Positions 1 to 14,988 of a stretch of DNA of 14,988 nucleotides are shown one piece after another (the stretch's first letter is position 1; every line of letters starts with the position of its first letter). The notes below the pieces were generated by a model, which had not been told where the DNA came from, made no database searches, and saw only the letters and a program-made list of their open reading frames with translations. The position numbers were made by a program, and so were the translations under genes. This DNA is from a bacterium (GTDB taxonomy: Bacteria; Sysuimicrobiota; Sysuimicrobiia; Sysuimicrobiales; Kaftiobacteriaceae). Where the stretch lies: the NCBI GenBank assembly GCA_044868695.1, contig JBIOWP010000121.1, forward strand, positions 1-14,988, given 5' to 3'.

Positions 1-1279
1 GGTGCACGATCTCGAGCGCCTCACCACTCTTGATCAGCACCCCCGACTCGGCGCCGCGGCCGGTCCCGACCATGATCGCCGTCGGGGTAGCCAGCCCAAG
101 CGCACACGGGCACGCGATGATCAACACCGCAACGAACGTGACCAGACCGTAGGTGAGCGACGGCTCTGGCCCAAACACCAGCCAGGCCAGCAGCGTGGCG
201 ATGGCAATCCCGATGACCGCCGGCACGAACGAGCTGGCCACGCGGTCCGCCAGCCGCTGGATCGGCGCTTTGGACCCCTGCGCCTCCTGTACCAGGCGGA
301 TGATCTGCGCCAGCATCGTGTCTCGGCCGACCTTCGTCGCCTTGAAGGTAAACGCGCCGGTCTTATTCAGCGTGGCGCCGATGACCGGATCGCCGGGGCC
401 CTTGTCGACGGGGAGCGACTCACCCGTCACCATGGACTCGTCGAGGGCGGACCGTCCCTCATGGACGATCCCGTCCACAGGAACCTTCTCCCCGGGCCGG
501 ACCACCACCAGGTCGCCGATTGCGACGTCGCCGACCGGAATATCGGTCTCCGTCCCGCCCCGCCGGACGCGTGCGGTCTTCGGCGCCAGCCCCATGAGCC
601 TGCGGATCGCTTCCGACGTCAGGCCCTTCGCCCGCGCCTCCAGGAAGCGGCCGAGGAGAATCAGCACAATGATGATGGATGACGTCTCATAGAAGACCTG
701 CGGTTCAATCCCGCCCGCGCGAAACACCTGCGGGACGGCCGTGGCCACGAGGCTGTAGACGTACGCCGCGCTCGTGCCGACCGCGATCAGCGTGTTCATG
801 TCCGTGGTCCGATGCCTGGCCATCGCCCAGGCACCGCGGTAGAACTGCCAGCCGGCCCAGAACTGCACCGGCGTTGCCAGCAGCAGTTGGACGTACCAGT
901 TCATGAGGATGTGGGGGACCGGCACACCGTGGATGCCCATGTGGCCCAGGCTTCCCCACAGGATGGGAATGCTGAGCGCTGTCGCGGCGATTAATTTGAG
1001 TTGGAGAGCGGCGATGTCCCGGCGGCGCGCGGCCCGCTCGACGTCTTCCGCGGCTTCACCGGCCACCTCGAGGACGTCGTACCCGGCGTCGCGGACGGCC
1101 TTCTGCAGCTCCGCGAGGGGCGTCTGCTCCGTCATCTCGACGGTGGCGCGTTCCAACGCCAGATTGACCGAGGCGTCCAGCACGCCCTCCACAGAGCGGA
1201 GCGCGTGCTCCACCTTCGCGACGCAGGAGGCGCAGGACATCCCTTGGATCGAGATCTGCGTTCGGGCGGTGCCGGTCAT
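1..1279 (-). CDS. copA: Copper-translocating P1B-type ATPase, 3' end truncated by the window edge
   Basis: Translated by hand from ATG at 1279: [24 protein letters not shown] (one heavy-metal-binding domain), [53 protein letters not shown]. The frame stays open to the window edge. The start lies 1 nt after the csoR stop. Confidence 0.96.
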
Positions 1280-1280
1280 C

Positions 1281-1589
1281 TTACAAGCGACCTGACATCT
1301 CAAAGACATCCAGGAGCTCTCGGATGGTCCGCTCCCGCTCGCGCTGGTCGTCCGCTCGGATCGCGGTGCTCGCGCACGTCTCGAGATGATCCTCCAGCAC
1401 CAGCGCGTTGACCTTTTCCAGCGCACGCTGGATGGCGAGGGTCTGCTTGATGACGTCGATACAGTAAGCGCCGTCTTCGACCATGCGGATGACCCCGCGC
1501 ACATGTCCCTCGATGCTGCGCAGGCGGGCCGCCGCCTTGGTGCGCACCGCTGCGCTGCCGTGGGCGAGCTGCGAGCCGTGAACTGCCAT
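1281..1589 (-). CDS. csoR: CsoR/RcnR-family metal-sensing repressor (102 aa)
   Basis: [17 protein letters not shown]...YCIDV...HLETC gives the Cys-His-Cys ligand set. GGAGG RBS 6 nt before ATG 1589, preferred over the track start at 1661. Directly upstream of copA. Confidence 0.93.
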
Positions 1590-1602
1590 GGAGAACCTCC
1601 CC

Positions 1603-1624
1603 CCACCCCCATGGGGAGGGGTGG
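1603..1624. promoter_or_regulatory. Putative CsoR operator (C-tract/G-tract dyad)
   Basis: CCACCCC-catgggga-GGGGTGG inverted repeat containing the perfect palindrome CCCCATGGGG (1607-1616), between the predicted -10 and the csoR RBS. CsoR operators are typically G/C-tract dyads. Confidence 0.6.
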
Positions 1625-1632
1625 CCTCTCCC

Positions 1633-1661
1633 AGGCTACCACGGGAGGAGCCGTCCGGCAA
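1633..1661 (-). promoter_or_regulatory. Sigma70-type promoter for csoR-copA
   Basis: Minus strand TTGCCG (1661-1656), 17 nt, TAGCCT (1638-1633), with an extended -10 TG. Confidence 0.6.
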
Positions 1662-1706
1662 GGGGGAGGACTGTCGGATCTCGCAGGAGGACCACAGGTT
1701 CCCTCC

Positions 1707-1771
1707 AAAAAAGAGCCAGCGGCTGCCGCCGAGTGGTCGATGCGACCTCTCGGCCGGCGCAGCCGCCGACT
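1707..1771 (-). terminator. Intrinsic terminator
   Basis: AGTCGGCGGCTGC (1771-1759) pairs with GCAGCCGCTGGCT (1726-1714); inner stems GCCGAG/CTCGGC and GGTCG/CGACC; followed by C-TTTTTT (1713-1707). Confidence 0.75.
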
Positions 1772-1860
1772 GCCGCTCTAGAGGAGCCGGTAGCCTTGCA
1801 CCGGGCGCGGGGTCTATCTGTCTTCGACTGCGCCAGGCGTTGCCCGGTCCTCTTCGAACG
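1707..1860 (-). ncRNA. Unassigned structured RNA (sRNA or riboswitch-like leader), ~155 nt
   Basis: Bounded by a near-consensus promoter and a hairpin plus U6 terminator, with no credible ORF inside. A long imperfect 5' hairpin (1860-1774) precedes the terminator hairpin (1771-1714). I cannot match it to a family I recognise. Confidence 0.6.
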
Positions 1861-1867
1861 GAACGCG

Positions 1868-1897
1868 ACTATAGCACGGTCATGACGGCACTGTCAA
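1868..1897 (-). promoter_or_regulatory. Near-consensus sigma70 promoter
   Basis: Minus strand TTGACA (1897-1892), 18 nt, TATAGT (1873-1868), with an extended -10 TG (TGcTATAGT). Confidence 0.75.
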
Positions 1898-1933
1898 GGA
1901 AAGGTCTATGGAGATTGCGGTGACGGGCATCTC

Positions 1934-2617
1934 ATGAATGTGGGGCGCGCGGGGCGGTGGATCGTCGCGGTCGGTGCAGCATTGGTCCTGGCGTGGCCTG
2001 CCGGGGCGGCGCCGGCCCGCCCGACCCAGTCCGTACCCACGGTCGAACAGCTGCGTCAGTTCCTGCAGAGTGTCACCATCCACATTGACATCGAGCTGCC
2101 CGACCGCCGCGGCGTATGCACCGGGTGGATTGGGTGGAGCGAACCCGCCCGGAGCGCCGTCTACACCGCGGCCCACTGCTACCAGCCCAATGCCACGTAC
2201 CGGATGAAAGCCGGAGGGGGCGATCCGGTCGTGTCGACCGGGTTCGCCAAGTGGGATGCCCTGGACTTGATGGTTCTGTGGATCCCGCGGGGCCAGCTTC
2301 CCGTGCTCCGGTCATGGAAGCAGATCCCCACCACCCCATTCCGGGCGATGTACATGCTGACCGAGCGGAGCAGCGGGACGCGGCTGGTTGAGGTGGACAT
2401 CCCGCGGGTGTACTCCGAGATCCGGTTCGAGAACCGCCCGGCCGCGGTCGCCCTGCCCCTGTATAGCTACCCCGGGACCAGCGGAGCGCCGGTCATCGAC
2501 CTGGCGGACGGGCTGCTCGTGGGCATGGTCGTGGGTTTCCTCGACGAACGTCCCGACATCGCGGCGGTCGTTCCGGCCCACTCGATCTACGGGGCCTTAA
2601 TCAGCGGGAATCGCTAG
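1934..2617 (+). CDS. Secreted trypsin-like (clan PA) serine protease, 227 aa
   Basis: Signal-peptide-like N-terminus (GRAGRWIVAVGAALVLAWPAGA); catalytic-triad motifs TAAHC, DLMVL, PGTSGAP. Confidence 0.85.
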   Translation: MNVGRAGRWIVAVGAALVLAWPAGAAPARPTQSVPTVEQLRQFLQSVTIHIDIELPDRRGVCTGWIGWSEPARSAVYTAAHCYQPNATYRMKAGGGDPVVSTGFAKWDALDLMVLWIPRGQLPVLRSWKQIPTTPFRAMYMLTERSSGTRLVEVDIPRVYSEIRFENRPAAVALPLYSYPGTSGAPVIDLADGLLVGMVVGFLDERPDIAAVVPAHSIYGALISGNR

Positions 2618-2650
2618 GCCCCGGCCCCGCGGCGCCGGCCGCCGGGGCCT
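2616..2650 (+). terminator. GC-rich hairpin after the protease stop, possible terminator
   Basis: AGGCCCCGGC (2616-2625) and GCCGGGGCCT (2641-2650) form a perfect 10-bp stem; no U-tract. Confidence 0.4.
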
Positions 2651-2676
2651 CCCCCTCCCGGGACATAAATTCCCTC

Positions 2677-2705
2677 TTGATTTGTGGCCGAAACCCCACA
2701 AAAAT
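2677..2705 (+). promoter_or_regulatory. Possible sigma70 promoter for groEL
   Basis: TTGATT (2677-2682), 17 nt, AAAAAT (2700-2705), in an AT-rich patch just upstream of CIRCE; the -10 match is weak. Confidence 0.35.
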
Positions 2706-2714
2706 AGTGAGAGG

Positions 2715-2741
2715 TTAGCAGTTAGACGCCGAGAGTGCTAA
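2715..2741 (+). promoter_or_regulatory. CIRCE element (HrcA operator)
   Basis: TTAGCAGTT-N9-GAGTGCTAA against consensus TTAGCACTC-N9-GAGTGCTAA (2 mismatches in the left arm), 56 nt upstream of groEL. Confidence 0.92.
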
Positions 2742-2797
2742 GCCCGCGGGCCCGCAGCCGTGGGCGGAGTATCTATCTCACAAGGAGGGGGTTCAGC

Positions 2798-4426
2798 ATG
2801 CCTGCAAAGATCCTGCTGTATGACGAGGAGGCGCGGCGCGCGCTGGAACGAGGGGTCGAGCGCGTGGCCAGCGCCGTGCGCGTGACGCTGGGACCCAAGG
2901 GGCGCAACGTCGTCCTTGAGAAGAAGTGGGGCTCGCCCACCATCACCAAGGACGGTGTCACGGTCGCCAAAGAGATCGAACTGGAAGATCCCAATGAGAA
3001 CATGGGAGCCCAGCTGGTCAAGGAAGTGGCCAGCAAGACCAACGACGCCGCCGGCGATGGCACGACCACCGCGACGGTGCTGGCGTGGGCCATCGTGCGC
3101 GAAGGGTTGCGGAACGTCGCGGCGGGATCCAACCCGATGCTCCTCAAGCGCGGCATCGACAACGCCGTCGCCGCCGTGGTGGACGAACTGAAGAAGATCT
3201 CCATCCCGGTGGAAGGCAAGCAGGACATCGGGCATGTCGCCGGGATCGCCGCCAACGACTCCGAGGTGGGCGATATCATCGCCGACGCGATGGAGAAAGT
3301 CGGCAAAGACGGCGTCATCACGATCGAGGAAGGCAAGGGCATCGACACGACGGTCGAAGTCGTGGAAGGGATGCAGTTCGACCGCGGGCACATCTCGCCC
3401 TACTTCATCACCGACCCCGATAAGATGGAGACCGTGCTCGAAGAGCCCTACATCCTGCTGACCGAAAAGAAGATCAGTGCGGCCAGAGACATCGTGCCGA
3501 TCATGGAGAAGGTGATCCGGTTCGGCAAACCGCTTGTCGTCATTTCCGAGGACGTGGAAGGCGAGGCGCTGGCGACGCTGGTCGTCAACAAACTGCGCGG
3601 GGTCCTGGCCAGTGTCGCCGTCAAAGCTCCAGGGTACGGCGATCGCCGCAAGGCGATGCTCCAGGACATGGCGGTGCTCACCGGCGGGAAAGTCCTCTCC
3701 GACGATATCGGCATCAAGTTCGAGTCGGTGGAGATCGACATGCTCGGCCGCGCCGAGAAGGTCAAGGTGGACAAGGACAACACAACCATCATCGGCGGCA
3801 AGGGGGACCGCAAGGACATTGCGGGCCGGATTGCCCAGATCAAGAAGGAGATCGAGGACACGACCAGCGACTACGATCGCGAGAAACTGCAGGAGCGTCT
3901 GGCCAAGCTCTCCGGCGGGGTCGCACAGATCAAGGTCGGCGCCGCCACCGAGACCGAGATGAAAGAGAAGAAGCACCGGTTCGAAGACGCGCTCAACGCG
4001 ACCAAGGCCGCGGTCGAGGAAGGAATCGTGCCCGGGGGCGGCACCTCGTACATCCGCGCCCTCCACGGTCTCGACAAGATCGAAGCCGAAACCGACGAGG
4101 CCATCGGCATCAACCTGGTACGCCGCGCGCTGGAAGAGCCGGCCAGGCAGCTGGCGGCGAACGCGGGCGTCGAGGGGAGCCTCATCGTCGAGCGGTTGAA
4201 GCGCGAAACCGGACGGACGGGGTACGACGTGGCGAAGGGCGAGTTTGCGGACATGATCAAGGCCGGGATTGTCGATCCGACCAAAGTCACCCGGCTGGCA
4301 CTCCAGAACGCCGCGTCGGTGGCCGGACTGCTGCTGACGACCGAGGCGCTTGTTGTCGAGAAGCGGGAGAAGAAGAAGGCGGCGGCGCCCATGCCCGGCG
4401 GTGGGATGCCCGAGGACGACTACTAA
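2798..4426 (+). CDS. groL: Chaperonin GroEL (542 aa)
   Basis: [74 protein letters not shown] before ATG 2798; the track start at 2735 lies inside CIRCE. Confidence 0.99.
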
Positions 4427-4429
4427 ACA

Positions 4430-4555
4430 ACGGAAACGGGAAACAGGAAACGGGAGACCTAACGCCATACGGCGGGTCGTCTGGACTTCGGGCGGCCCGC
4501 CGACCCTTTCCTCCACGGAGCCGGTTGCTTCCCGTTGCCCGTTTCCCGCTTCCGT
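4430..4555. repeat. 29-bp inverted repeat built from degenerate 7-bp units (GGGAAAC)
   Basis: ACGGAAACGGGAAACAGGAAACGGGAGAC (4430-4458) matches the reverse complement of 4527-4555, ACGGAAGCGGGAAACGGGCAACGGGAAGC, at 24/29 positions. Confidence 0.85.
4471..4510 (+). terminator. Probable groEL terminator hairpin
   Basis: GGCGGGTCGTCTG (4471-4483) pairs with CGGGCGGCCCGCC (4489-4501); the G-U pairs work only on the + strand; weak pyrimidine tail GACCCTTTCC. Confidence 0.65.
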
Positions 4556-4558
4556 CAG

Positions 4559-4714
4559 TCAGTGTCTGGCTTCCCTCGCCATCTTGAGAACGTCCTCGCG
4601 GGAAATGCTCTTCCCGTGGGCCGTTTTCATATGCTCCTGCGCCTTGCGCACCATCTCCTCGTCCGAGTCTGCGTGGATCACCTGACCGCACGTGCATGTA
4701 AAGTGCTTGTGCAT
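4559..4714 (-). CDS. DUF1059-like small predicted metal-binding protein (51 aa), not in the ORF track
   Basis: MHKHFTCTCGQVIHADSDEEMVRKAQEHMKTAHGKSISREDVLKMAREARH; the Cys pair, xEE helix and HxxxxH pattern fit DUF1059. GGAGGAG RBS; starts 15 nt after the ilvD stop. Confidence 0.85.
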   Translation of the reverse strand: MHKHFTCTCGQVIHADSDEEMVRKAQEHMKTAHGKSISREDVLKMAREARH

Positions 4715-4729
4715 GGTCTCTCCTCCCCC

Positions 4730-6403
4730 TCAACCCGTGACGGCTCCCATCGACGCTGACGACACCAGACGCGCGTACTTGGCCATGGCGCCTGCGGTGT
4801 AGCGCGGCGCCGGCGGCGTCCAGCGCGCCAGCCGGGCGCTTAATTCTTGACCGCTGAGCTCGACGTCGAGCCGGCGGGCCTCGACATCGATCGCGATGGC
4901 GTCCCCATCGCGCACGGCGGCAATCGGGCCACCCTTCGCGGCCTCTGGCGCGATGTGGGCCGCCATGAACCCGTGGGTGGCTCCCGAGAACCTGCCGTCC
5001 GTAATGAGCGCGACCGAGTCGCCGAGCCCTGCGCCGACCAAGGCCGCGGTCACGGCCAGCATCTCGCGCATGCCGGGGCCGCCCATCGGCCCCTCGTACC
5101 GGATGACCACAACGTCGCCGGGCCGGACCACGTCCCGCCGGACCGCGTCAAACGCATCTTCTTCGCTGTCGAACACGCGCGCCGGGCCACGGTGCTGCAG
5201 CCGTTCGTGGCCTGCGAGTTTCACCACACAGCCTTCAGGTGCGAGGTTCCCGCGCAGAATCGCGATACCTCCCCATTTCTTCAGCGGATTGCTCACCGGC
5301 CGCACGACCTCCTGCGCGGGAGTCTCCCTGGCGGCCGCCGCTTCATCGGCGATCGTGCGCCCGGTCACGGTGAGCGCGTCGCCGTGGAGCGCGCCCGCCT
5401 CAAGGAGCCGTTTGGCCAGCAGCCGCACTCCTCCGGCGCGATACAGATCGGCGGCCACGAACCGGCCACCGGGCTTCAAGTCGGCCAAAACCGGCGTGCG
5501 GGCGCTGACGCGGTCGAAATCGTCGATGGTGAGGTCGACACCGGCCTCCCGCGCCACGGCCAGGATGTGCAGCACCGCGTTCGTCGACCCGCCGGACGCG
5601 GCCACCGCCGCGATGGCATTTTCCAGCGCATGGCGCGTGATGATCTGCCGGGGCCTCAGCCCCGCGCGGATGACGTCCATGACAAGCCGCCCGGCGCCTT
5701 CCGCGGCCGGGGCCTTCTGCGGGTCCACAGCCGGGACATCGTTGACGCCCATCGGCGAGATCCCCATGATCTCAAAGGCCATCGCCATCGTGTTCGCGGT
5801 GAACTGCCCGCCGCACGCCCCGGGGCCCGGACACGCGGCCTCCTCCAGCCCCCGCAGCCTCTCCAGCGTCATCTTTCCGGCATGGTACGCTCCCACGGCC
5901 TCAAAGACATCCTGAATCGTCACGGCGCGCCCCTCAAACTCCCCGGGCAGGATTGACCCGCCGTAGATCATCAGCGACGGCAGGTCCAGCCGGGCCAGCG
6001 CCATAACCGTCCCGGGAATCGTCTTGTCACATCCGGAAATGGCGACGAGGCCATCGAGCAGGTACCCGCGCGCGACCAGCTCGATGGAGTCGGCGATGAT
6101 TTCCCGGCTGACCAGCGAGGTCCGCATCCCCTCAGTGCCCATCGAGATCCCGTCGGAGATGGCGATAGTGTTGAACTCCACCGGCGTCCCTCCGGCCGAC
6201 CGCACGCCGGCTTTGACTTTCTCAGACACGCCCCGCAGGTGGTAGTTGCAGGGCATCAACTCGATCCAGGTATTGGCGATGCCGATCAGGGGTTTGCGGA
6301 GATCCTCATCGGTGAACCCGATCGCCCGGAAGTACGAGCGCGCCGGAGCGCGGTCTGGACCATCCAGCATGCGGGAGCTGCGGGTGCGGAGACCCGTCGG
6401 CAT
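4730..6403 (-). CDS. ilvD: Dihydroxy-acid dehydratase
   Basis: [68 protein letters not shown]. Confidence 0.98.
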
Positions 6404-6444
6404 GGCCTCTCCTCCTGAAGATGCGTCTACAAAAGGGTCTGACC

Positions 6445-7554
6445 CTATTGAAGACCGCGTCGAGCGCCCCGGACGTCCGCCGTCGCCGCCGTCGCGGTCT
6501 CCGCGGATACCCGGTCTCCTACCTCGGTGGTTGACGCCGTGCCGCCGAGGTCGGGGGTCCGAATCCCGGCCGCCAGTACCCGGCCGACCGCCCCCTCCAC
6601 CGCCGCCGCGGCGTCGTCGCGGCCCAGGGAGTGGCGTAGCAGCATTGCCGCGCTCAGAATAGCCCCTACGGGGTTGGCGATGCCTCTCCCGGCGATGTCC
6701 GGCGCGGTCCCATGCACAGGTTCATACAGAAATGGAGGCCGATCCCCCAGGCTGGCCGACGGCAGGAGACCCAGCGACCCGACCACCGCGCCGGCCTCGT
6801 CGCTGAGGATGTCCCCAAACATGTTTTCAGTCACGATCACGTCGAACTGTGCCGGTGCCCGGACCAGCTGCATCGCGCACGTATCGACCAGCATGTGTTC
6901 CATGGTAACGTCGGGAAAGGCGCGCGCCTCTGCTTCGGCCGTCTCGCGCCACAGCCTCGAGGTTTCCAAAACGTTTGCCTTGTCCACCGATGTGACTTTG
7001 CGGCGCCGCCCTCTCGCCGCTGCGCAGGCGACGCGGACGACTCTCGCGATCTCCTCCCGTGAATACCGCAGGGTATCCACGGCGGCATCGCCGGTCCGTT
7101 CGTGGGGCCGGCCAAAGTACAGCCCACCGATGAGTTCGCGGACGATCAGCAAATCGGTACCCGCCGCGACCTCCGGCCGCAGCGGGGACGCGCTCCCGGC
7201 TGCGGGATCCAGCCGGACCGGGCGCAGGTTGGCAAACACGCCCAGAGCGGCCCGCAGCTGCAGGAGGCCCGCTTCCGGGCGCACCGGACCGGGGAGCCGG
7301 TCCCACTTGGGACCGCCGGCCGCGCCAAACAGCACGGCTTCGGACCTGCGGCATGCCTGCAGCGTGTCGGCGGGCAGGGGCACGCCGGCGGCATCGACCG
7401 CCGTCCCCCCGATCGGAAGCTCCGCGAATGCGAACTGGATGTGAAACCGGGCGGCTACTGCCTGAAGGACTTTGACGGCTTCCCGGATGACCTCGGGACC
7501 GATGCCATCGCCGGGGAGGAGCGCAACGCGAACCTCACCCGGCACGGCTATCAA
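6445..7554 (-). CDS. leuB: 3-isopropylmalate dehydrogenase
   Basis: [56 protein letters not shown]. Start uncertain: TTG 7554 or GTG 7545. Confidence 0.97.
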
Positions 7555-7687
7555 ACGAGTCCTGAATGCGCTCGATGACCCACTCCGTGTCGCCGCCCTC
7601 CTGGGACGGTTGGGACACCTGGCTCAACGTTTCCTTCAACACCCTCAGCAGATGTTCGGCGGGCTCACGCCCGGATGATGGTTCCAC
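7535..7687 (-). CDS. Hypothetical small protein (50 aa) between leuD and leuB, not in the ORF track
   Basis: GGGAGGGAG RBS 6 nt before GTG 7687; [50 protein letters not shown]; the stop overlaps the leuB start region; fills the leuD-leuB gap. Confidence 0.6.
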   Translation of the reverse strand: MEPSSGREPAEHLLRVLKETLSQVSQPSQEGGDTEWVIERIQDSFDSRAG

Positions 7688-7721
7688 TGCCGTCTCCCTC
7701 CCTACCCATGATCACGGCTGC

Positions 7722-8222
7722 TCATCGCCGGCGCGCAAGCTCCGCACGGACGTAGCCCACGATCCCGCCGGCGGCCAGCAGCTGCTGCATGAACTCCGGC
7801 ACCGGCGTCCCGTCGTAGACCTCGCCACGGGTATCGTTGCGAATCTTGCCGGACGCCAGATCCACCTCGAGTTCGTGCCCGGGCGCCACCCGACCGTGTG
7901 CCTCCCGGCACTCCACTACCGGCAGGCCGACATTGAACGCGTTGCGGTAGAAGATGCGGGCGAAGGATATCGCGACGATGCACGTCACGCCCGCCCCCTT
8001 GATGGCGATCGGCGCGTGCTCGCGCGAACTGCCCTGCCCGAAGTTCTCTCCCGCCACCAGCACGTCACCCGGCGTGATCCGCGCGCGCAGCGACGGATCG
8101 AGGTCTTCAAACACGTACTTCGCGAGCTCCGCCGGATCCGTCGTGACCAGGTACCGGGCCGGGATGATGACATCCGTGTCGATGTGATGTCCCAGGACGT
8201 GCGCCTTCCCCCGGATGGTCAT
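7722..8222 (-). CDS. leuD: 3-isopropylmalate dehydratase small subunit (short, type 2)
   Basis: IDTDVIIPARYL, GENFGQGSSREHA, SFARIFYRNAFNVGLP; 166 aa; operon context. Confidence 0.95.
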   Translation of the reverse strand: MTIRGKAHVLGHHIDTDVIIPARYLVTTDPAELAKYVFEDLDPSLRARITPGDVLVAGENFGQGSSREHAPIAIKGAGVTCIVAISFARIFYRNAFNVGLPVVECREAHGRVAPGHELEVDLASGKIRNDTRGEVYDGTPVPEFMQQLLAAGGIVGYVRAELARRR

Positions 8223-8231
8223 CGATCGCTC

Positions 8232-9512
8232 CTACGCCGGGACCGGCTCCCGCATGACATCATCGGGGTGCACCAGTTTCCCGGCAACCGCCGCCGCGGC
8301 GGCCACCGCGGCGTTGCTCAGAAAGACCTGGCTGCCGCGATGTCCCATGCGGCCGATAAAGTTCCGGCTGCTGGTCGACACGCACACCTCACCGTCGGCC
8401 AGCACCCCCATGTGCCCGCCGATACAGGGGCCGCAGGTCGACGTGCTGAACGCCGCTCCCGCGTTAAGGAAAATCTGGATCAGGCCCTCGTCGAGCGCCT
8501 GCCGGTAGATCGCGGGGGTCGCCGGAATGACGAGCAGCCGGGTATTGGCGTGCACCTTGCGGCCGGCCAGGACCTTGGCCGCCGTACGCAGGTCCTCGAT
8601 CCGGCCATTGGTGCACGTTCCGATGAAGCACTGGTCTACCCGCACCCCGCCCGCCTCACGCACCGGGATGACGTTCCCGGGCGACGCCGGCGCGGAGACC
8701 ACAGGCTCCAGCGTGGAGACGTCGTACATGCGGACATCGGCGTATCGCGCGTTGCCGTCGCTGCGCTGCGGGGTGAACGGGCGGCGGGCTCGCGGCCGCA
8801 CCCACCCCAGGGCGCGATCATCGGGCTCCATGATCCCGTTTTTCGCGCCGGCTTCCACGGCCATGTTCGTGATGGAAAACCGTTCGTCCATCGTCAGCTG
8901 GGCGAGCGTATCCCCCGCGAACTCCATCGCGCCGTAGCGCGCGCCGTCCACCCCGATCTCGCCGATGACCTTGAGGATGAGGTCCTTCCCGGTCACCCAG
9001 GGGCGCAGCCGGCCGGAGAAGACAAATTTGGTGGACTCCGGCACCCGCAGCCACAGCCGGCCCAGCGCCATGGCGGCGGCCAGGTCGGACGACCCGACGC
9101 CCGTGGCAAACGCCCCCAGCGCACCGTGGTTGCACGTGTGTGAGTCCGCCCCCACGAACACCTCGCCCGGAAGCACATACCCCAGCTCCGCGAGGAGCAC
9201 GTGGGCGATGCCGGACCGTCCCACGTCGTAGAAATGCGGCAGGGCATGAGCGGCGACAAACTCCCGCGTCACCTTACACTGCTGCGCTGAGGCGATGTCT
9301 TTGTTGGGGACGTAGTGGTCGAAGACGAACCCCACTCGGTCCGGATCGAAGACTCTGGCCACGCCCATCTTTTCGAATTCCTTGATCGCCAGGGGCGCGG
9401 TGATATCGTTGGCAAACAAGAAATCCACGTTGCAGTCGATCAGATCACCGGGCCGCACGTCGGGACGGCCTGCGTGGGCGGCCAGAATTTTTTCCGTGAT
9501 CGTCATCCCCAT
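8232..9512 (-). CDS. leuC: 3-isopropylmalate dehydratase large subunit (type 2, homoaconitase-like clade)
   Basis: MGMTITEKILA, GADSHTC, FIGTCTNGRIEDL, STCGPCIGG, STSSRNFIGRMG. Start taken at ATG 9512, just after the leuA stop. Confidence 0.95.
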   Translation of the reverse strand: MGMTITEKILAAHAGRPDVRPGDLIDCNVDFLFANDITAPLAIKEFEKMGVARVFDPDRVGFVFDHYVPNKDIASAQQCKVTREFVAAHALPHFYDVGRSGIAHVLLAELGYVLPGEVFVGADSHTCNHGALGAFATGVGSSDLAAAMALGRLWLRVPESTKFVFSGRLRPWVTGKDLILKVIGEIGVDGARYGAMEFAGDTLAQLTMDERFSITNMAVEAGAKNGIMEPDDRALGWVRPRARRPFTPQRSDGNARYADVRMYDVSTLEPVVSAPASPGNVIPVREAGGVRVDQCFIGTCTNGRIEDLRTAAKVLAGRKVHANTRLLVIPATPAIYRQALDEGLIQIFLNAGAAFSTSTCGPCIGGHMGVLADGEVCVSTSSRNFIGRMGHRGSQVFLSNAAVAAAAAVAGKLVHPDDVMREPVPA

Positions 9513-9516
9513 CGGC

Positions 9517-11061
9517 CTATGAGCCCCCTTCCTGCGCGAGCAGCGCGGCCGGCCGCTGGCCGACGAGGATCTTGTTGACCGCGGCCAGATACGCACGGCC
9601 GCTGGCCTCGAGAATGTCGGTGCTGCTCGCGCGGCCCACGGAGAGGTCCCCCTCCCACCGCAGCTTCACGACCGCCTCGCCGACGGCATCGGCGCCGCCG
9701 GCCGCCGCCCGCACCGTGTAGTCCACCAGCTCCGGGTGGACCCCGACGGCGGACGCGATGGCATCAAACAGCGCGTTCACGGGACCGTCGCCGCTGGCCG
9801 TCCGTTCCGCTTCCGCGCGACCGCGCGACACGACCACCGTCGCCGCCGGCTTGCTTCCGCTGCCGGTCGCCACGGCGAACCGCCGCAGTTCCCACGTGCG
9901 AGGCGCGGTGGCGAACTCCTCCTCGACCAGGGCGATGACCTCGTCCTGGGCGACGGTCTTCTTCCGGTCGCAAACCTCCTTGAACCGCGCGAACGCGCGC
10001 TCGAGTTCCTCCGGCCCCAGGCGGATCCCCGCGTCGTGCAGGACCCTCCCGAACGCGTGGCGGCCGGAGTGCTTGCCAAGGACCAGGCGGTTGGTCGGCA
10101 GCCCGATGGACGCCGGTGTCATGATCTCATAGGTCCGCCGGTCCACCAGCACCCCGTGCTGGTGAATCCCCGCCTCGTGCGCGAAGGCGTTCGCGCCGAC
10201 GACGGCCTTGTTCGGCTGGACGTCGATCCCTGTAAACGCGCAGAGGAGCCGGCTGGTCGGGTAAATCTGGGTCGTGTCAATCCCGGTGATGAGGCTCGCC
10301 GTGTCCCGCCGTGTTGCCAGCGCCATGATGACCTCTTCCAGCGCCACGTTGCCGGCCCGCTCGCCGATCCCGTTGACCGTCCCTTCGACCTGCCGCGCTC
10401 CCGCCTGCAGGCCGGCCAGGGAGTTGGCGGTCGCCAGCCCGAGGTCGTTATGACAGTGTACGCTGACCGTCACCCGGTCCATGCCCGGGACGCGCTCGAT
10501 CAGCGTGCGGACGAGGGCGCCGAACTCTTCCGGCAGCGCGTACCCGACGGTGTCGGGAATGTTGATGATCGTAGCGCCCGCGGCGATGGCCGCCTCAAAG
10601 ACCCGGCACAGAAAGTCGATCTCGGACCGGGTGGCGTCCTCGGCGCTGAACTCCACTTCGGGAACCAGCGACCGCGCGAATGCGACGGCCTTGCGCGCGC
10701 TCTCCAGGACCTCCTCGGGCGTCATCCGGAGCTTGTGCGCCATATGGATGGGCGACGTGGCGATAAAGGTGTGCACCCGCGCCCGCTCAGCCAGCCCGAC
10801 GGCCTCCGCCGCGGTCTCCACGTCCTTCGGGTTGGCGCGCGCCAGCCCGCAGATCACGGGACCGCGCACCTCGGCGGCGATCCGCCGAACGCCTTCGAAC
10901 TCGCCCGGGGAGGAGATGGGGAACCCGGCTTCGATAACGTCCACGCCGAGCCGCGCCAGCTGGCGGGCCATCTGGAGCTTTTCTTCCGGCCACATCGAGA
11001 AGCCCGGCGACTGCTCTCCGTCGCGCAGCGTGGTGTCAAAGACGAACACGCGGGTGGACAT
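9517..11061 (-). CDS. leuA: 2-isopropylmalate synthase
   Basis: FDTTLRDGEQSPG, HCHNDLG, GIGERAGN, GKHSGRH, and a C-terminal regulatory domain (GDGPVNA). Start taken at ATG 11061, 5 nt after the ilvC stop. Confidence 0.96.
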   Translation of the reverse strand: MSTRVFVFDTTLRDGEQSPGFSMWPEEKLQMARQLARLGVDVIEAGFPISSPGEFEGVRRIAAEVRGPVICGLARANPKDVETAAEAVGLAERARVHTFIATSPIHMAHKLRMTPEEVLESARKAVAFARSLVPEVEFSAEDATRSEIDFLCRVFEAAIAAGATIINIPDTVGYALPEEFGALVRTLIERVPGMDRVTVSVHCHNDLGLATANSLAGLQAGARQVEGTVNGIGERAGNVALEEVIMALATRRDTASLITGIDTTQIYPTSRLLCAFTGIDVQPNKAVVGANAFAHEAGIHQHGVLVDRRTYEIMTPASIGLPTNRLVLGKHSGRHAFGRVLHDAGIRLGPEELERAFARFKEVCDRKKTVAQDEVIALVEEEFATAPRTWELRRFAVATGSGSKPAATVVVSRGRAEAERTASGDGPVNALFDAIASAVGVHPELVDYTVRAAAGGADAVGEAVVKLRWEGDLSVGRASSTDILEASGRAYLAAVNKILVGQRPAALLAQEGGS

Positions 11062-11066
11062 CGTCG

Positions 11067-12089
11067 TCAGGATGCGCCGACCGGCTGCTTGGGTGCTTTG
11101 CGCGACAGCCACGGCATCATCGCGCGCAGCCGGCGCCCGACCTCTTCGATCGAGTGCGCCTGCTCCTGCGTGCGCTGCTCTCTAAAATTCGGGCGGCCGG
11201 CCTGGTTTTCACTCACCCACTCGCGGGCGAACGTCCCGTCCTGAACCTCGCGCAGGATCCGCTTCATCTCCGCTCGCACCCGATCGCTGATGACCCGGTG
11301 GCCGCGGCTGTAGTCGCCGTACTCCGCCGTGTCGGAGACGGAATAGCGCATGTACGACAACCCGCCTTCGTACATGAGGTCCACAATCAACTTCATCTCA
11401 TGCAGGCACTCGAAGTAGGCAATCTCCGGCTGATACCCGGCTTCCACCAAGGTGTCGAACCCCGCCTTGATCAGGCTGGAGATCCCGCCGCACAGCACGG
11501 TCTGCTCGCCAAACAAGTCGGTCTCGGTTTCTTCCTTGAAGGTCGTCTCAATCACGCCCGCCTTCGTGCAGCCGACGGCGCGCGCGTAGGCGAGCGCCGT
11601 CTCCTTGGCGTGCCCCGTCACATTCTGGTGCACGGCCAGCAGCCCGGGCACCCCCACCCCCTCCACGAACAACTCTCGCATGCGGTGACCCGGCGCCTTG
11701 GGCGCAATCATCACGACGTCCACGGTCGGCGTGGGGACGATCTGGCCGAAGTGGATGTTGAACCCATGCGCAAACAGCAGCGTGCGCCCGGGCCGGAGAT
11801 TCGGCCCGACCTCCCCTTCATAGATCCCGCGCTGCACGTGGTCGGGCGTCAGCATGGCCACGAGGTCGGCCTGCTGCGCCGCCTCGGCTACGGGGGTGAC
11901 GCGGAACCCGTCCGCTTCCGCCTTGCTCCACGAAGGGCTGCCGCGGTAGAGCCCCACGATCACTGAGATCCCGCTGTCCTTGAGGTTCTGCGCGTGGGCG
12001 TGCCCCTGGCTGCCGTAGCCGATGACGGCCACCGTTGCGCCCCGCAGCGGCTCGCCCGGTGCGTCCTTGTCATAGTAGATGGTTGCCAT
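11067..12089 (-). CDS. ilvC: Ketol-acid reductoisomerase (class I)
   Basis: [67 protein letters not shown] before ATG 12089. Confidence 0.98.
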
Positions 12090-12111
12090 CGTCACACCCC
12101 CAAAGTCTGTC

Positions 12112-12612
12112 TCAGGTTGCCTGCGCTCCTCTGACGAGCGTCACCTGTCCCGTCCGGGCGATCTCCCGGATCCCGTACTTCACCAGGAGCTGCACGAAGG
12201 CGTCGATCTTTTCGCCGCGGCCGGTCACCTCAAGCGTCATGGTCTTGTCCGTGAGGTCGACCACACTCGCACGGAACACGTTGGCGATCTCCATGATTTC
12301 CAGCCGGGTGCCGGTGGTCACGTTCACTTTGATGAGGGCCAGCTCACGGTCGACGCTGGGCGCGCTGTCGATCGCCGTCGCCCGCATCACCTCGACGAGC
12401 TTGCGCAGCTGCTTCGCGAACTGTTCAGTGCGTTCCGGGGCCGTGTCAACGACGATGGTCATCCGCGACACACTGGGATCCTCCGTGGGCCCCACCGAGA
12501 GGCTGTGGATGTTCACCCCGCGCCGGCGAATCATCCCCGCCACGCGCACCAGCACGCCTGGGGCGTTCTGCACCAAGACCGAGATCGTGGCCGCGTGGGG
12601 CTGGCTACTCAT
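12112..12612 (-). CDS. ilvN: Acetolactate synthase small (regulatory) subunit
   Basis: ACT domain [46 protein letters not shown]; overlaps the ilvB stop by 8 nt. Confidence 0.96.
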
Positions 12613-14329
12613 CCAGAATCATCTCCGCCACCGACTGGCCGGAGGGGATCATCGGCAGGCAGTTCTCTTCCGGGTCGCAGAGGATATCCACGACGCACGG
12701 CACGCCTTCGGTCTCCAGCGCCGTCCGCAGCGCGGCCTCCACGCCCTCGGGCTGCTCCACCCGGATGCCGCGGGCGCCGAACGCGCGGCCGATCGCGGCG
12801 AAATCGGGGTTGCGGAGGATGGAAGACGAGAAGCGGCCGCGGTAGAAGAATGACTGCCACTGCCGGACCATGCCCAGCGCGCCGTTGTTGAGGACGAAGA
12901 TGGGCAGGCTGAGACCGTGCTCGACCGCCGTGATCAGATCCTGCATCGTCATTTGGAAGCCCCCGTCCCCGACGACCGCGATGACCTGCCGGTCAGGGCG
13001 GGCGAACTTCGCGCCCATGGCCGCCGGGAACCCGAACCCCATCGCCCCCAGACCGCCTGAGGAGATGAAGGTCCGCGGCTCGCGGCACTTGTACCACTGC
13101 GCCATCCACATCTGGTGCTGGCCCACGTCGGTGGCCACGATGGCCCGGCCTCCGGTCAGACGGTTCAGTAGGTCGCAGACATACTGATGGCTGATCCGGT
13201 CGCCGCGCGGCCGGTAGCGAAACGGATACCGCCGCCGCCACTCCTCAATCTGCTTCACCCACGCCTCGATCTGCGGAGCGTGAACGAGGGGTGTCAACGC
13301 CGCCAGGACGCGCTTCGCGTCCCCGACAATCGGGATATGCGCGGGTTTGTTCTTGCCGATCTCCGCGGGATCGATGTCGATGTGGATGAAGCGGGCGTGG
13401 GGGGCAAAGTCCTTCAGCCGCCCGGTCACCCGGTCGTCGAAGCGCACACCGACGGCCAGGATGACGTCGGCGCTGTTGATGGCGAAGTTCGCGAACGCGC
13501 TGCCGTGCATGCCGAGCATCCCCAGGCAGCGCGGATGCGCCTCGTCCATCGCGCCCTTGCCCATCAGCGTGAGCGCAGCCGGGATACCGGTCTTGTCCAC
13601 CAGCGCCGTGAGTTCCGCAGTCGCCCCGCTGCTCAGGATACCCCCGCCCGCGTAGATGAGCGGTTTCTGGGCGCCGGAGAGCGCCGCCGCCGCCTCGGCG
13701 ATCTGGTTGGGATTGCCATCCATGACCGGGCGGTAGCCGGGGAGGGTGTCCTCCTCACCGAAGCTCGGTTCGCACACTTCTTGTGAGACGTCGCGGGGGA
13801 TGTCCACGAGGACCGGACCGGGGCGGCCCGTGCCGGCCAGATGGAACGCCATCCGCACGGCCCTGGGGACATCGACCGCCTGCATCACCAGGGTGTTGTA
13901 TTTCGTGATGGGCATCGTGATACCGGTGACGTCGGCCTCTTGAAATGCATCATTGCCGATGACCGGCCGCGGGACCTGACCGGTGATCGCGACGACGGCG
14001 ACGGAATCCATCATGGCATCGGTCAGACCCGTAATCAGGTTGGTCGCGCCGGGCCCCGAGGTGGCCGTGCACACGCCGATGCGACCGGATGCGCGGGCGT
14101 AGCCGACCGCAGCGTGCGCGGCGACCTGCTCGTGGCGCACGAGGACGTGGCGGATATCCTCCGCGTCGTAGAGCGCATCATAAATGGGAAGCGACGCGCC
14201 GCCGGGATGGCCGAACAGCACCTCGACCTTTTCCCGCCGCAGCGCTTCCACGAGGGCCTGCGCGCCGTTCATCTGGCGTGGCCGCTCCGCCGATTTTGAC
14301 GGCGTGGGCGCGGTCAGTGGACGTGCCAT
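12605..14329 (-). CDS. ilvB: Acetolactate synthase large subunit, biosynthetic
   Basis: FGHPGGA, VRHEQ, TSGPGATN, DAFQEAD, TDVGQHQMW, ThDP motif GDGGFQM...NNGALGMVRQWQ. GGAGG RBS 8 nt before ATG 14329. Confidence 0.98.
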   Translation of the reverse strand: MARPLTAPTPSKSAERPRQMNGAQALVEALRREKVEVLFGHPGGASLPIYDALYDAEDIRHVLVRHEQVAAHAAVGYARASGRIGVCTATSGPGATNLITGLTDAMMDSVAVVAITGQVPRPVIGNDAFQEADVTGITMPITKYNTLVMQAVDVPRAVRMAFHLAGTGRPGPVLVDIPRDVSQEVCEPSFGEEDTLPGYRPVMDGNPNQIAEAAAALSGAQKPLIYAGGGILSSGATAELTALVDKTGIPAALTLMGKGAMDEAHPRCLGMLGMHGSAFANFAINSADVILAVGVRFDDRVTGRLKDFAPHARFIHIDIDPAEIGKNKPAHIPIVGDAKRVLAALTPLVHAPQIEAWVKQIEEWRRRYPFRYRPRGDRISHQYVCDLLNRLTGGRAIVATDVGQHQMWMAQWYKCREPRTFISSGGLGAMGFGFPAAMGAKFARPDRQVIAVVGDGGFQMTMQDLITAVEHGLSLPIFVLNNGALGMVRQWQSFFYRGRFSSSILRNPDFAAIGRAFGARGIRVEQPEGVEAALRTALETEGVPCVVDILCDPEENCLPMIPSGQSVAEMILDE

Positions 14330-14344
14330 CGTCATCCCCTCCAG

Positions 14345-14385
14345 AAAATACATTACGGGAGCGCCTCTAAGGACGGACGCTCCCG
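14345..14385 (-). terminator. T-box-controlled terminator
   Basis: CGGGAGCGTC pairs with GGCGCTCCCG (14385-14356), overlapping the antiterminator 3' strand, followed by TAATGTATTTT. Confidence 0.75.
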
Positions 14386-14593
14386 CGGTACCACCCTAGT
14401 TCCTCCACACGCGCTCGTCTGATCGCGCGTGGCGGCTCTCAACCCGATAACGGCGGTGTGCCGGCGGCGCCTCGCGAGATCCGTTCGGCGCCACGGCTCA
14501 GGGATGAGTTCGGCGGGAATCAGCGCCGCCGGCTTCCACCGTTCTCCGGCTCTCTAAATCGCCTGCCCCAGCCTACTGCTTCCCTTCGTTGCC
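14345..14593 (-). ncRNA. T-box riboswitch with Leu (CUC) specifier
   Basis: Stem I with AGTAG, AGAGA and GGTGGAA motifs; GAA-CTC specifier (CTC at 14508-14506); CCGTTA F-box; T-box sequence AGGGTGGTACCGCG; antiterminator CTAGGG/CCTTAG and GCG/CGT around a TGGTACC bulge. Confidence 0.95.
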
Positions 14594-14605
14594 GAGTCCA
14601 CCCGA

Positions 14606-14658
14606 TAGAAAAAGCCTGAGCGATAGATTCGTGTGAGGAACCTATCCCTCAGGCTTTT
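14606..14658 (-). terminator. Terminator of the ykkC-family riboswitch expression platform
   Basis: AAAAGCCTGAG-G-GATAGG pairs with TCTATC-G-CTCAGGCTTTT, ending in TTTTTCT; the 5' arm is the aptamer's 3' strand. Confidence 0.88.
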
Positions 14659-14750
14659 GTCCTGACGGTGTAACGGTCTAGACGACCGCCTGCGCCGCTC
14701 GGACCAACCGGCCCCTTGTGGGGACCGTGGAACCCTAGGCGCACTCCCTC
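14635..14750 (-). ncRNA. ykkC-family riboswitch aptamer, most likely subtype 2a (ppGpp)
   Basis: GAGGGAGTGCGCCTAGGGTTCC...TGGTCCGAGCGGCGCA...TACACCGTCAGGACAAAAGCCTGAGGGATAGGTTCCTC. It has the ykkC hallmarks CTAGGGTTCC, GGTCCGAG, ACACC and AAAAGCC, a P0 helix GAGGGA/TTCCTC, and lies upstream of BCAA genes. Confidence 0.9.
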
Positions 14751-14774
14751 GAGCGATATTCGGGCTTTCCAAGG

Positions 14775-14803
14775 AAGTTAGCAGAGGCGCAGGTGAATGT
14801 CAA
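14775..14803 (-). promoter_or_regulatory. Sigma70 promoter of the ilv-leu leader
   Basis: TTGACA (14803-14798), 17 nt, TAACTT (14780-14775), with an extended -10 TG; predicted start ~18 nt before the aptamer. Confidence 0.75.
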
Positions 14804-14988
14804 CCCCTGAAACCCCTGAGTAGTGGTTCAGTCTGGACTGTCATCCGTCTTCTGTTGGGCTAGTGGAAGGCCGCTCCGCTCTCGGGGCGGCTCACCCGCC
14901 GGGCGTAGCGCTCGGGCTCGCCAGCCACGATCGGCTGGGCTCACCCGGCCGGCACGACGGCCGGGCACGCTGCTCCGGGCCCCCCCGC
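14798..14988. mobile_element. Possible end of an insertion sequence (TGT terminus), partial
   Basis: Begins TGTCAACCCCTGAAACCCCTGAGTAGTGGTTCAGT with short direct repeats, followed by four consecutive GC hairpins. No transposase is visible in the window; resemblance only. Confidence 0.3.

Follow-up and report, generated by a model that had tools for sequence, protein, structure and literature searches.

A candidate family of structured small RNA in the Sysuimicrobiota, linked to a stand-alone groEL2

The small RNAs (sRNAs) that Rfam lists as "Gene; sRNA" include lineage-restricted orphan motifs such as Acido-1, Bacteroidales-1, and Chloroflexi-1. Other described motifs accompany metal or chaperonin genes: the czcD (NiCo) motif is a transcription-termination riboswitch of metal homeostasis genes, and the Pseudomon-groES RNA motif forms a short leader immediately ahead of groES in Pseudomonas. 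Here, we describe a structured RNA that recalls each of these and is encoded in a stretch of 14,988 nucleotides (nt) from a bacterium of the Kaftiobacteriaceae (phylum Sysuimicrobiota; assembly GCA_044868695.1, contig JBIOWP010000121.1, positions 1–14,988), to which we refer as the window. The structured non-coding RNA occupies positions 1706–1866 of the reverse strand (144.1 bits and an E-value of 1.4e-33 with our covariance model R1) and points toward the copper genes csoR and copA. An initial annotation, made from the letters of the window, read it either as a stand-alone sRNA or as an attenuator gating read-through into csoR–copA. With the orphan motifs, the RNA shares an intergenic position, a predicted promoter and terminator of its own, a covarying structure, restriction to one lineage, occurrence (mostly) once per genome, and the lack of a known function. 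It differs from them in having no Rfam match, in its lineage (CSP1-3/Sysuimicrobiota), and in a persistent link to a stand-alone groEL2.

The phylum, of which CSP1-3 is the former name and to which Ca. Calidihabitans tengchongensis belongs, is described as uncultivated and as reaching up to 22.64% relative abundance in soils (PMC11604079). Comparative analysis of its genomes indicates that the RNA gene is real, in that it is conserved as a unit with a covarying fold, and that it represents a new structured sRNA family, which within the scope of our searches is confined to the Sysuimicrobiota. As to its role, which we derive from sequence, the reading that we favor on balance is that of an independently transcribed, structured RNA gene of ~155–160 nt that would act in trans as a protein-binding RNA and not as a leader of csoR–copA. 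Taken separately, action in trans is likely, and this action would probably involve protein binding.

The promoter assigned to the RNA, a consensus promoter of the sigma-70 type, combines a −35 hexamer, TTGACA (1892–1897), with an extended −10 element (1868–1875) in which TG (1875–1874) and one further base precede TATAGT (1873–1868). With a spacer of 18 nt, these elements span 1897–1868 on the reverse strand and match 11 of 12 consensus positions, in line with the near-perfect extended −10 promoter of the initial annotation. No other promoter-like site was found between 1200 and 2700, where shuffled sequences are expected to yield 0.2. The stretch 3′ of the promoter lacks an open reading frame (ORF) and closes with a long, G+C-rich hairpin and a hairpin-associated run of six T residues at 1712–1707 (U6 in the RNA). 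The ORF-free region of ~155 nt with its terminal hairpin, as first annotated, is present in its entirety between 1897 and 1707. A transcript running from ~1862 to 1707 is predicted from the promoter and the U-run.

The minimum free-energy (MFE) fold of 1866–1700 (reverse strand) has an energy of −89.1 kcal/mol, compared with −73.0 ± 4.5 kcal/mol for 200 dinucleotide shuffles (z = −3.56), none of which folds as well. This fold comprises the 5′ helices CCGUUC/GAGCGG, AGAGGA-CCGG/CCGG-C-UCCUCU, CGCC-GGCGC/GCGCC-GGUG, and GUC/GAC, a loop GAAGACAGAUA, and the 3′ hairpin, and it reproduces the extended 5′ helix and A-rich loop of the initial annotation. Two domains can be distinguished. Domain 1 (1773–1861) is a long irregular hairpin that begins with P1 (1861–1856 paired with 1778–1773), continues with P2, P2b, and P3 (1853–1842 with 1794–1780), and ends, beyond an internal loop in which AA (1841–1840) faces CAAG (1795–1798), with P4 (1839–1830 with 1808–1799) and an apical loop of ~20 nt (1809–1829). 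Domain 2, or P5 (1714–1771), is a long G+C-rich hairpin of ~25 bp, which both the fold and the covariation support and which is the predicted intrinsic terminator. It is built from a conserved outer stem (GGCGGCUGC/GCAGCCGCC), a small asymmetric internal loop, an inner stem GCCGAG-A-/-A-CUCGGC, and a variable but covarying tip, and its sequence is strongly conserved.

Homologs were collected in two rounds. A blastn search with 1700–1900 against 61 related genomes gave matches in 23 of these, including the window's own genome. Six short matches of 25–37 nt (L028–L033) were dropped as unrelated sequence without promoter or fold, and 17 loci (L011–L027), each with the promoter and the whole fold, were kept. 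The resulting 18 sequences have a mean column identity of 71%, and each of them folds independently into the two-domain architecture. All of these folds contain P1 together with P5, with a variable linker in between; the two do not exclude each other. The covariance model R1 (165 positions, 48 pairs) was made from the consensus of the per-sequence folds. Its 93 matches, less 16 same-genome duplicates and 7 short or antisense partials, left 70 distinct full-length RNAs (alignment A3), from which a second model, R2, was built.

The initial annotation had proposed looking for conservation and covariation among relatives, and both are evident in the 70 sequences. Standard base pairs fill 90.7% of the 3288 paired cells of A3, compared with 36.6–46.8% when the partners are slid by one to three columns; both sides have changed in 39 of the 48 pairs; and none of 500 shuffles reaches any of the observed measures. 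P1 is paired in 98.6% and P4 in 88.1% of cells, with compensatory changes in 9 of the 10 pairs of P4, and the helices that make up P5 (helices 7–9) are 92–96% paired, with compensatory changes in 17 of 23 pairs. The top 13 column pairs by mutual information with average product correction (APC) are all pairs of the model, and among the top 60 there was no sign of a pseudoknot, an extra helix, or a multi-helix junction. G–U cells outnumber A–C cells by 310 to 97, which indicates that the promoter strand is the strand that folds; the promoter and the downstream U-run, both on the reverse strand in the window, support the same orientation. The insertions, deletions, and compensatory changes seen among the homologs are unlike those of a coding region.

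Conservation is concentrated in the helices. At least 97% of the 70 sequences agree in the P1 strands (CCG..UC / G..GG), one G–C pair within P3, CAAG in the 3′ strand of the internal loop between P3 and P4, most of the P5 outer stem, and GCC/GGC of the P5 inner stem. The AAGA of the otherwise variable apical loop (GAAGA in the window) and a CGA in the P1/P2 loop are conserved at a lower, consensus level. No unpaired invariant run longer than 4 nt was found in these sequences, the longest being CAAG.

The promoter is conserved together with the RNA. TTGAC lies at an equal distance from the RNA in homologs, the distance from promoter to P1 is fixed, and the 70 upstream regions, taken column by column, give the consensus TTGA ... 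TG.TA...T, ending 5–7 nt ahead of CCCGUCUC. Of these regions, 53 fit the pattern TTG[AC][CA]N-16..19-TAnnnT, and one family has a perfect TATAAT. At the other end, a run of at least four U residues occurs within 9 nt after P5 in 40 of the 70 homologs. In the family that we label f1, a further element, TAGAC (1906–1910 in the window), is conserved 6–9 nt upstream of the −35 hexamer, often as CCATAGAC. It was seen in L011–L013, L020–L024, and L027, among others, and is duplicated in L012; in L024 and L063, the spacing of TTGACA is too short, and TAGAC would itself sit at the distance of a −35 element. Within the control region that the RNA shares with a divergent peptidase gene, TAGAC may act as an additional promoter element or be bound by a regulator.

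Of 94 genomes of the phylum, 71 have a full-length match to R1, as do 42 of the 54 that are at least 90% complete; most have a single copy, as does the window's genome. By family, the counts are 19 of 21 in f1, 29 of 34 in f5, 20 of 23 in f3, 1 of 1 in f7, and 0 of 1 in each of f6 and f2. In f4, 1 of 12 genomes gave a match, a weak one of 28 bits. With R2, a genus that had escaped R1, g22, is added to those of f5 (R2 scores 53 bits in genome G045, and R1 gives 29 bits at the syntenic place). With R2, none of the 12 f4 genomes, 9 of them of high quality, gave a match, in a search of a kind in which positive controls matched, and R1 run with filters off found no homolog in the 1.5 kb upstream of groEL2 in the f4 genomes G024, G029, and G035. 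Five other RNA-negative genomes, all less than 90% complete, were also negative with R2. In G024, the slot upstream of groEL2 next to a putative DUF881-like ORF, assigned by position and length alone, holds a tRNA-Lys(CUU) (L122:419–494, reverse strand).

Beyond the phylum, the search covered an exact 25-base motif. In 185,579 species genomes, this motif occurs at 17 loci, 16 of which are this RNA, as confirmed with R1; the 17th (L040) lies in coding-looking DNA without a covariance-model match and was set aside as a chance match. The motif had no exact match in viral_contigs. Together with the single copy in the genome, this led us to reject a repeat or mobile element. Restriction of the RNA to the phylum, which outside it rests on the exact motif, is therefore provisional. 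Four genomes of genus g21 have an additional copy of the RNA that is more divergent and does not adjoin groEL2 (L102:3001–3161, L105:3001–3160, L106:3001–3149, and L108:3001–3147). These copies have TAGCGA in place of the −35 TTGAC, and most of the apical portion of domain 1 is missing from two of them.

We compared the RNA with described families. At gathering level, Rfam 15 (4227 families, among them metal riboswitches, ribozymes, and Y RNA) gave no match at the RNA in the window, and in 17 homologous loci it gave tRNAs elsewhere only. With the threshold relaxed to E ≤ 10, region 1560–1960 gave four noise matches, the best of which scores 16.9 bits against a cut-off of 37 and lies outside the RNA; the best match that overlaps the RNA reaches 13.5 bits against a cut-off of 39, and two divergent homologs likewise gave noise only. 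The initial impression that the RNA resembles no known riboswitch, 6S, signal recognition particle (SRP), or tRNA family is in keeping with these searches. The sole Rfam match in the window is a T-box leader (RF00230) at 14366–14598 on the reverse strand, with 93.3 bits against a gathering cut-off of 93. A divergent SRP RNA, 6S RNA, transfer-messenger RNA (tmRNA), or RNase P RNA was rejected, as all four are located elsewhere in this genome (73 bits, 79.3 bits on contig C84, 148 bits, and 284 bits, respectively). 6S RNA (RF00013) nevertheless offers some parallels, namely a length of ~160–185 nt, a strong housekeeping-type promoter, near-universal presence in the lineage, and a conservation of helices that suggests recognition by protein. 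Unlike the two separate hairpin domains found here, however, 6S RNA is one long helix with a central bubble resembling an open promoter; RF00013 has no match at this locus, and the true 6S RNA lies on C84. In their main text, the genomic papers on the phylum that were searched make no mention of a non-coding RNA or sRNA, and no description of this RNA was found among the titles and abstracts listed for groEL-linked or orphan RNA motifs.

The gene context of the RNA is conserved in one respect and variable in others. The RNA of the window is divergent from a gene for a trypsin-like peptidase (1934–2617, forward strand; PF13365, 31.6 bits), which is followed by groEL2 (2798–4426, forward strand; PF00118, 270 bits). 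A CIRCE-like inverted repeat (controlling inverted repeat of chaperone expression) at 2715–2741, ahead of groEL2, has two mismatches to the CIRCE consensus. The ORF call for groEL2 at 2735 begins inside this repeat; the real start is the MPAK at 2798. The groEL2 of the window is a second copy without groES; groES and groEL1 are on another contig of this genome (G000:C120:16786–18747). The groEL2 gene is linked to the RNA in 62 of the 70 loci, which makes it a neighbor conserved across the phylum, and wherever it was found, a CIRCE of its own separates it from the RNA.

Three arrangements account for these loci. In 39 of the 70 loci, the RNA is followed by a convergent DUF881 gene (PF05949) that ends 0–102 nt after it, with CIRCE–groEL2 on the RNA strand 800–1100 nt downstream; in 6, the RNA lies 117–177 nt directly upstream of CIRCE–groEL2; and in 17, all from f1, the RNA is divergent from peptidase and groEL2 as in the window. 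The peptidase gene adjoins the RNA in 19 loci, a context of f1. The remaining 8 loci lack groEL2 in the examined DNA and consist of 3 short f1 loci, 1 contig end with CIRCE at +155, and 4 second copies. Because three different downstream arrangements occur, the RNA is independent of the downstream gene. The Pseudomon-groES motif is likewise a conserved RNA structure tied to a chaperonin locus; here, however, the RNA is a separate gene with its own predicted terminator, it lies 117–1800 nt from a groEL2 without groES and in either orientation, and it has no Rfam match. A mimic of CIRCE for HrcA, or a CIRCE at the RNA promoter, was considered and rejected, as CIRCE-like repeats occur only ahead of groEL2 and their spacers are variable. 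A similarity of GCCGAGAG between the CIRCE spacer of the window and P5 is not conserved.

The stand-alone sRNA, one of the two options left by the initial annotation, is the one borne out by these data: the RNA has its own promoter, lacks an ORF, ends in a hairpin with, in the homologs counted above, a U-run, and is kept as a unit of promoter, RNA, and 3′ hairpin, with heavy covariation, in the 71 genomes. The transcript as such is predicted. The fixed strong promoter, the single copy, the phylum-wide retention, and the independence from downstream genes point to a stand-alone and probably abundant transcript that would act in trans. Protein binding is favored over seed pairing because conservation resides in helices and purine-rich loops of 2–4 nt, because there is no long open seed, and because antisense pairing with groEL2 failed a test described below. 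In the mechanism we envisage, transcription would start 1–5 nt before P1 and end at the U-run after P5, which would serve as an intrinsic terminator and, where the DUF881 gene converges, would terminate transcription in both directions. The internal loops of domain 1 (CGA and AA/CAAG), the AAGA of the apical loop, and the helical sequence would be read by a protein or engaged in a tertiary fold, and not used as antisense. The conserved sequence of P5 suggests that this hairpin may have an additional role as a binding platform.

Several observations weigh against this reading of the RNA as a stand-alone, trans-acting gene. The transcript is a prediction, as are its ends and its abundance. In 30 of the 70 homologs, a run of at least four U residues is absent from the 9 nt scored after P5, so that termination at P5 may be weak in some homologs. 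Alignment A3 was fitted to the model, which favors the structure of the model; a model-independent analysis of the 18 sequences with MAFFT and RNAalifold gave 28 pairs, 12 of them compensatory, and missed P1–P3, due to misalignment in the plain MAFFT alignment. Furthermore, the RNA lies on the groEL2 strand and points toward groEL2, at a distance of 117–1100 nt, in 45 of the 70 loci. Given this orientation and the poor U-runs, we retain a weaker version of action in cis, in which read-through toward groEL2 may have an effect. The last point concerns a possible protein partner and is taken up in the next paragraph.

A tentative alternative, which we regard as possible but doubtful, is that the RNA is a base-pairing sRNA that depends on Hfq, with the A-rich apical loop or another open segment pairing with mRNAs in trans and the terminator hairpin and U-tail binding Hfq. 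The RNA resembles the Hfq-binding sRNAs of Proteobacteria in its own promoter and its terminator-like 3′ hairpin with a U-tail, the apical loop contains the conserved AAGA, and the genomes in question also encode an Hfq-like domain. In the window's genome, the sole such domain (PF17209; 36 and 32 bits in two scans) forms the last ~60 residues of a conserved ORF of ~380 residues (G000:C31; L143:550–1698, forward strand). It is thus not a canonical small Hfq; conservation in four f1 orthologs extends to the preceding 200+ residues, and, judged by its sequence, the protein is possibly a fused Hfq of an unusual kind. Of the 94 genomes, 73 encode the domain (19 of 21 in f1, 29 of 34 in f5, 22 of 23 in f3, 1 of 1 in f7, 1 of 1 in f6, 0 of 12 in f4, and 0 of 1 in f2), a distribution that parallels that of the RNA at the family level and makes the protein our guess for a candidate partner. 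This parallel rests on one or two losses (f4 and f2) among related genomes, and the pattern is probably common to many other genes, which is the last of the points that count against the reading we favor.

The RNA itself differs from Hfq-binding sRNAs of Proteobacteria in having no conserved seed, as the conserved single-stranded stretches never exceed 4 nt, and in a very G+C-rich body that is almost fully paired; its helices are the most conserved part, which is unusual for seed-driven sRNAs. Pairing of the apical loop with the leader of the cognate groEL2, the single target class tried, gave −12.6 kcal/mol over 57 loci, compared with −13.3 kcal/mol for shuffled leaders and −12.2 kcal/mol for non-cognate leaders. 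The duplex is no stronger than with shuffled leaders, and antisense control of groEL2 by the apical loop was rejected on these grounds. CsrA was dismissed as a partner, since PF02599 was found only in f4 (8 of 12 genomes) and f7 (1 of 1), nearly opposite to the RNA. Across the phylum, the distribution of CsrA is nearly complementary to that of the RNA and of the Hfq-like protein.

Regulation in cis, as a riboswitch or attenuator, was the other option of the initial annotation and is, in our view, improbable. Domain 1 would then be a sensor, P5 a regulated terminator, and read-through would control the downstream genes, that is, csoR–copA in f1 and antisense DUF881 and/or groEL2 in other families. 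The layout of a structured 5′ domain followed by an intrinsic-terminator hairpin, upstream of csoR–copA in the window, is indeed that of czcD (NiCo)-type riboswitches, and the shared orientation with groEL2 and the weak U-runs noted above fit this idea as well. An alternative 8-bp pairing of CCGGTGCA with TGCGCCGG that would invade P5, as first annotated, does exist in the window, but it is not conserved: 66.7% of its cells in A3 are paired, compared with a mean of 68.2% in alignments shuffled for column composition, most sequences have 3 of the 8 pairs broken, and 1 of 8 shows compensatory change (5 cells). P1 and P5, as described, can form together across a variable linker, and no further covarying long-range pairs were detected among the top mutual-information pairs.

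The downstream genes, whose tabulation had been suggested as a check, also speak against control of copper genes. A csoR gene lies downstream of the RNA in 20 of the 70 loci and copA in 18, all in f1, at distances of 80–1195 nt and often with another gene in between; hence, the copper genes are a family-specific neighbor. Elsewhere, the downstream position is taken by the convergent DUF881 gene or directly by groEL2, with its own CIRCE. In the window, csoR (1281–1589, reverse strand; PF02583, 86.5 bits) has its own Shine–Dalgarno sequence and an ATG at 1589, and it is followed by the 5′ part of copA (2–1282, reverse strand), which encodes P-type ATPase and HMA domains (PF00122, 201.9 bits; PF00403, 56.2 bits) and runs off the window. 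A G+C-rich palindrome, CCCCTCCCCATGGGGGTGGGG, is located at ~1599–1624, between the RNA terminator and the csoR start, just upstream of the Shine–Dalgarno sequence. It resembles a CsoR-type operator; if it is one, csoR–copA would have their own control. The RNA differs from czcD (NiCo)-type riboswitches, then, in that it and the downstream genes have separate promoters, metal genes follow it in one family, no antiterminator is conserved, and neither a metal riboswitch nor any other riboswitch family of Rfam matches. A copper or other riboswitch gating csoR–copA was rejected on the basis of gene context and the failed antiterminator test, and little room is left for an attenuator of these genes, because the antiterminator is not conserved, P1 and P5 coexist, and the downstream genes vary.

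Still less probable is an undescribed class of catalytic or structural RNA, such as a self-cleaving ribozyme. The phylum-wide fold with its invariant purine-rich internal loops would suit such an RNA, and a 5′ CGAnGAG box bears a faint likeness to the hammerhead box, CUGAUGA. No Rfam ribozyme family matched at E ≤ 10, however, and the RNA has no detectable multi-helix junction or pseudoknot. The core of a hammerhead is not realized either, as one base is in excess, a GAAA element is missing, and the would-be cleavage triplet is base-paired within the covarying P1. A hammerhead-like core and a k-turn at the P1/P2 loop, both considered by eye, were rejected because the residues that they need are paired in P1. 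Finally, that there is no functional RNA and that the conservation reflects DNA elements, such as promoter or operator sites of the neighbors or a bidirectional terminator, is hardly credible: P5 does end close to the convergent DUF881 gene in 39 loci and f1 has a divergent promoter region, but five helices over ~160 nt are kept by compensatory changes, the excess of G–U over A–C marks one transcribed strand, and the unit is intact across three gene arrangements at a fixed distance between promoter and P1.

The comparison also carries a caution, since the appearance of a metal riboswitch in a single genome, with a terminator and an orientation into csoR–copA, vanished once relatives were compared. 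A speculative extension of the protein-binding reading, to which we assign a low probability, is that the RNA is a fifth housekeeping-grade RNA beside SRP RNA, 6S RNA, tmRNA, and RNase P RNA. A lineage-specific ribonucleoprotein (RNP), formed with the ~380-residue Hfq-domain protein, would then have this RNA as its RNA subunit or regulator. RNA and protein would have been lost together in one family, and the RNA gene would have kept its link with the heat-shock groEL2 locus despite several rearrangements. As a candidate new RNA family present in about three-quarters of the genomes of the phylum, it could be added to Rfam and used in genome annotation, and it may point to a lineage-specific RNP or to a stress-related regulator adjoining groEL2.

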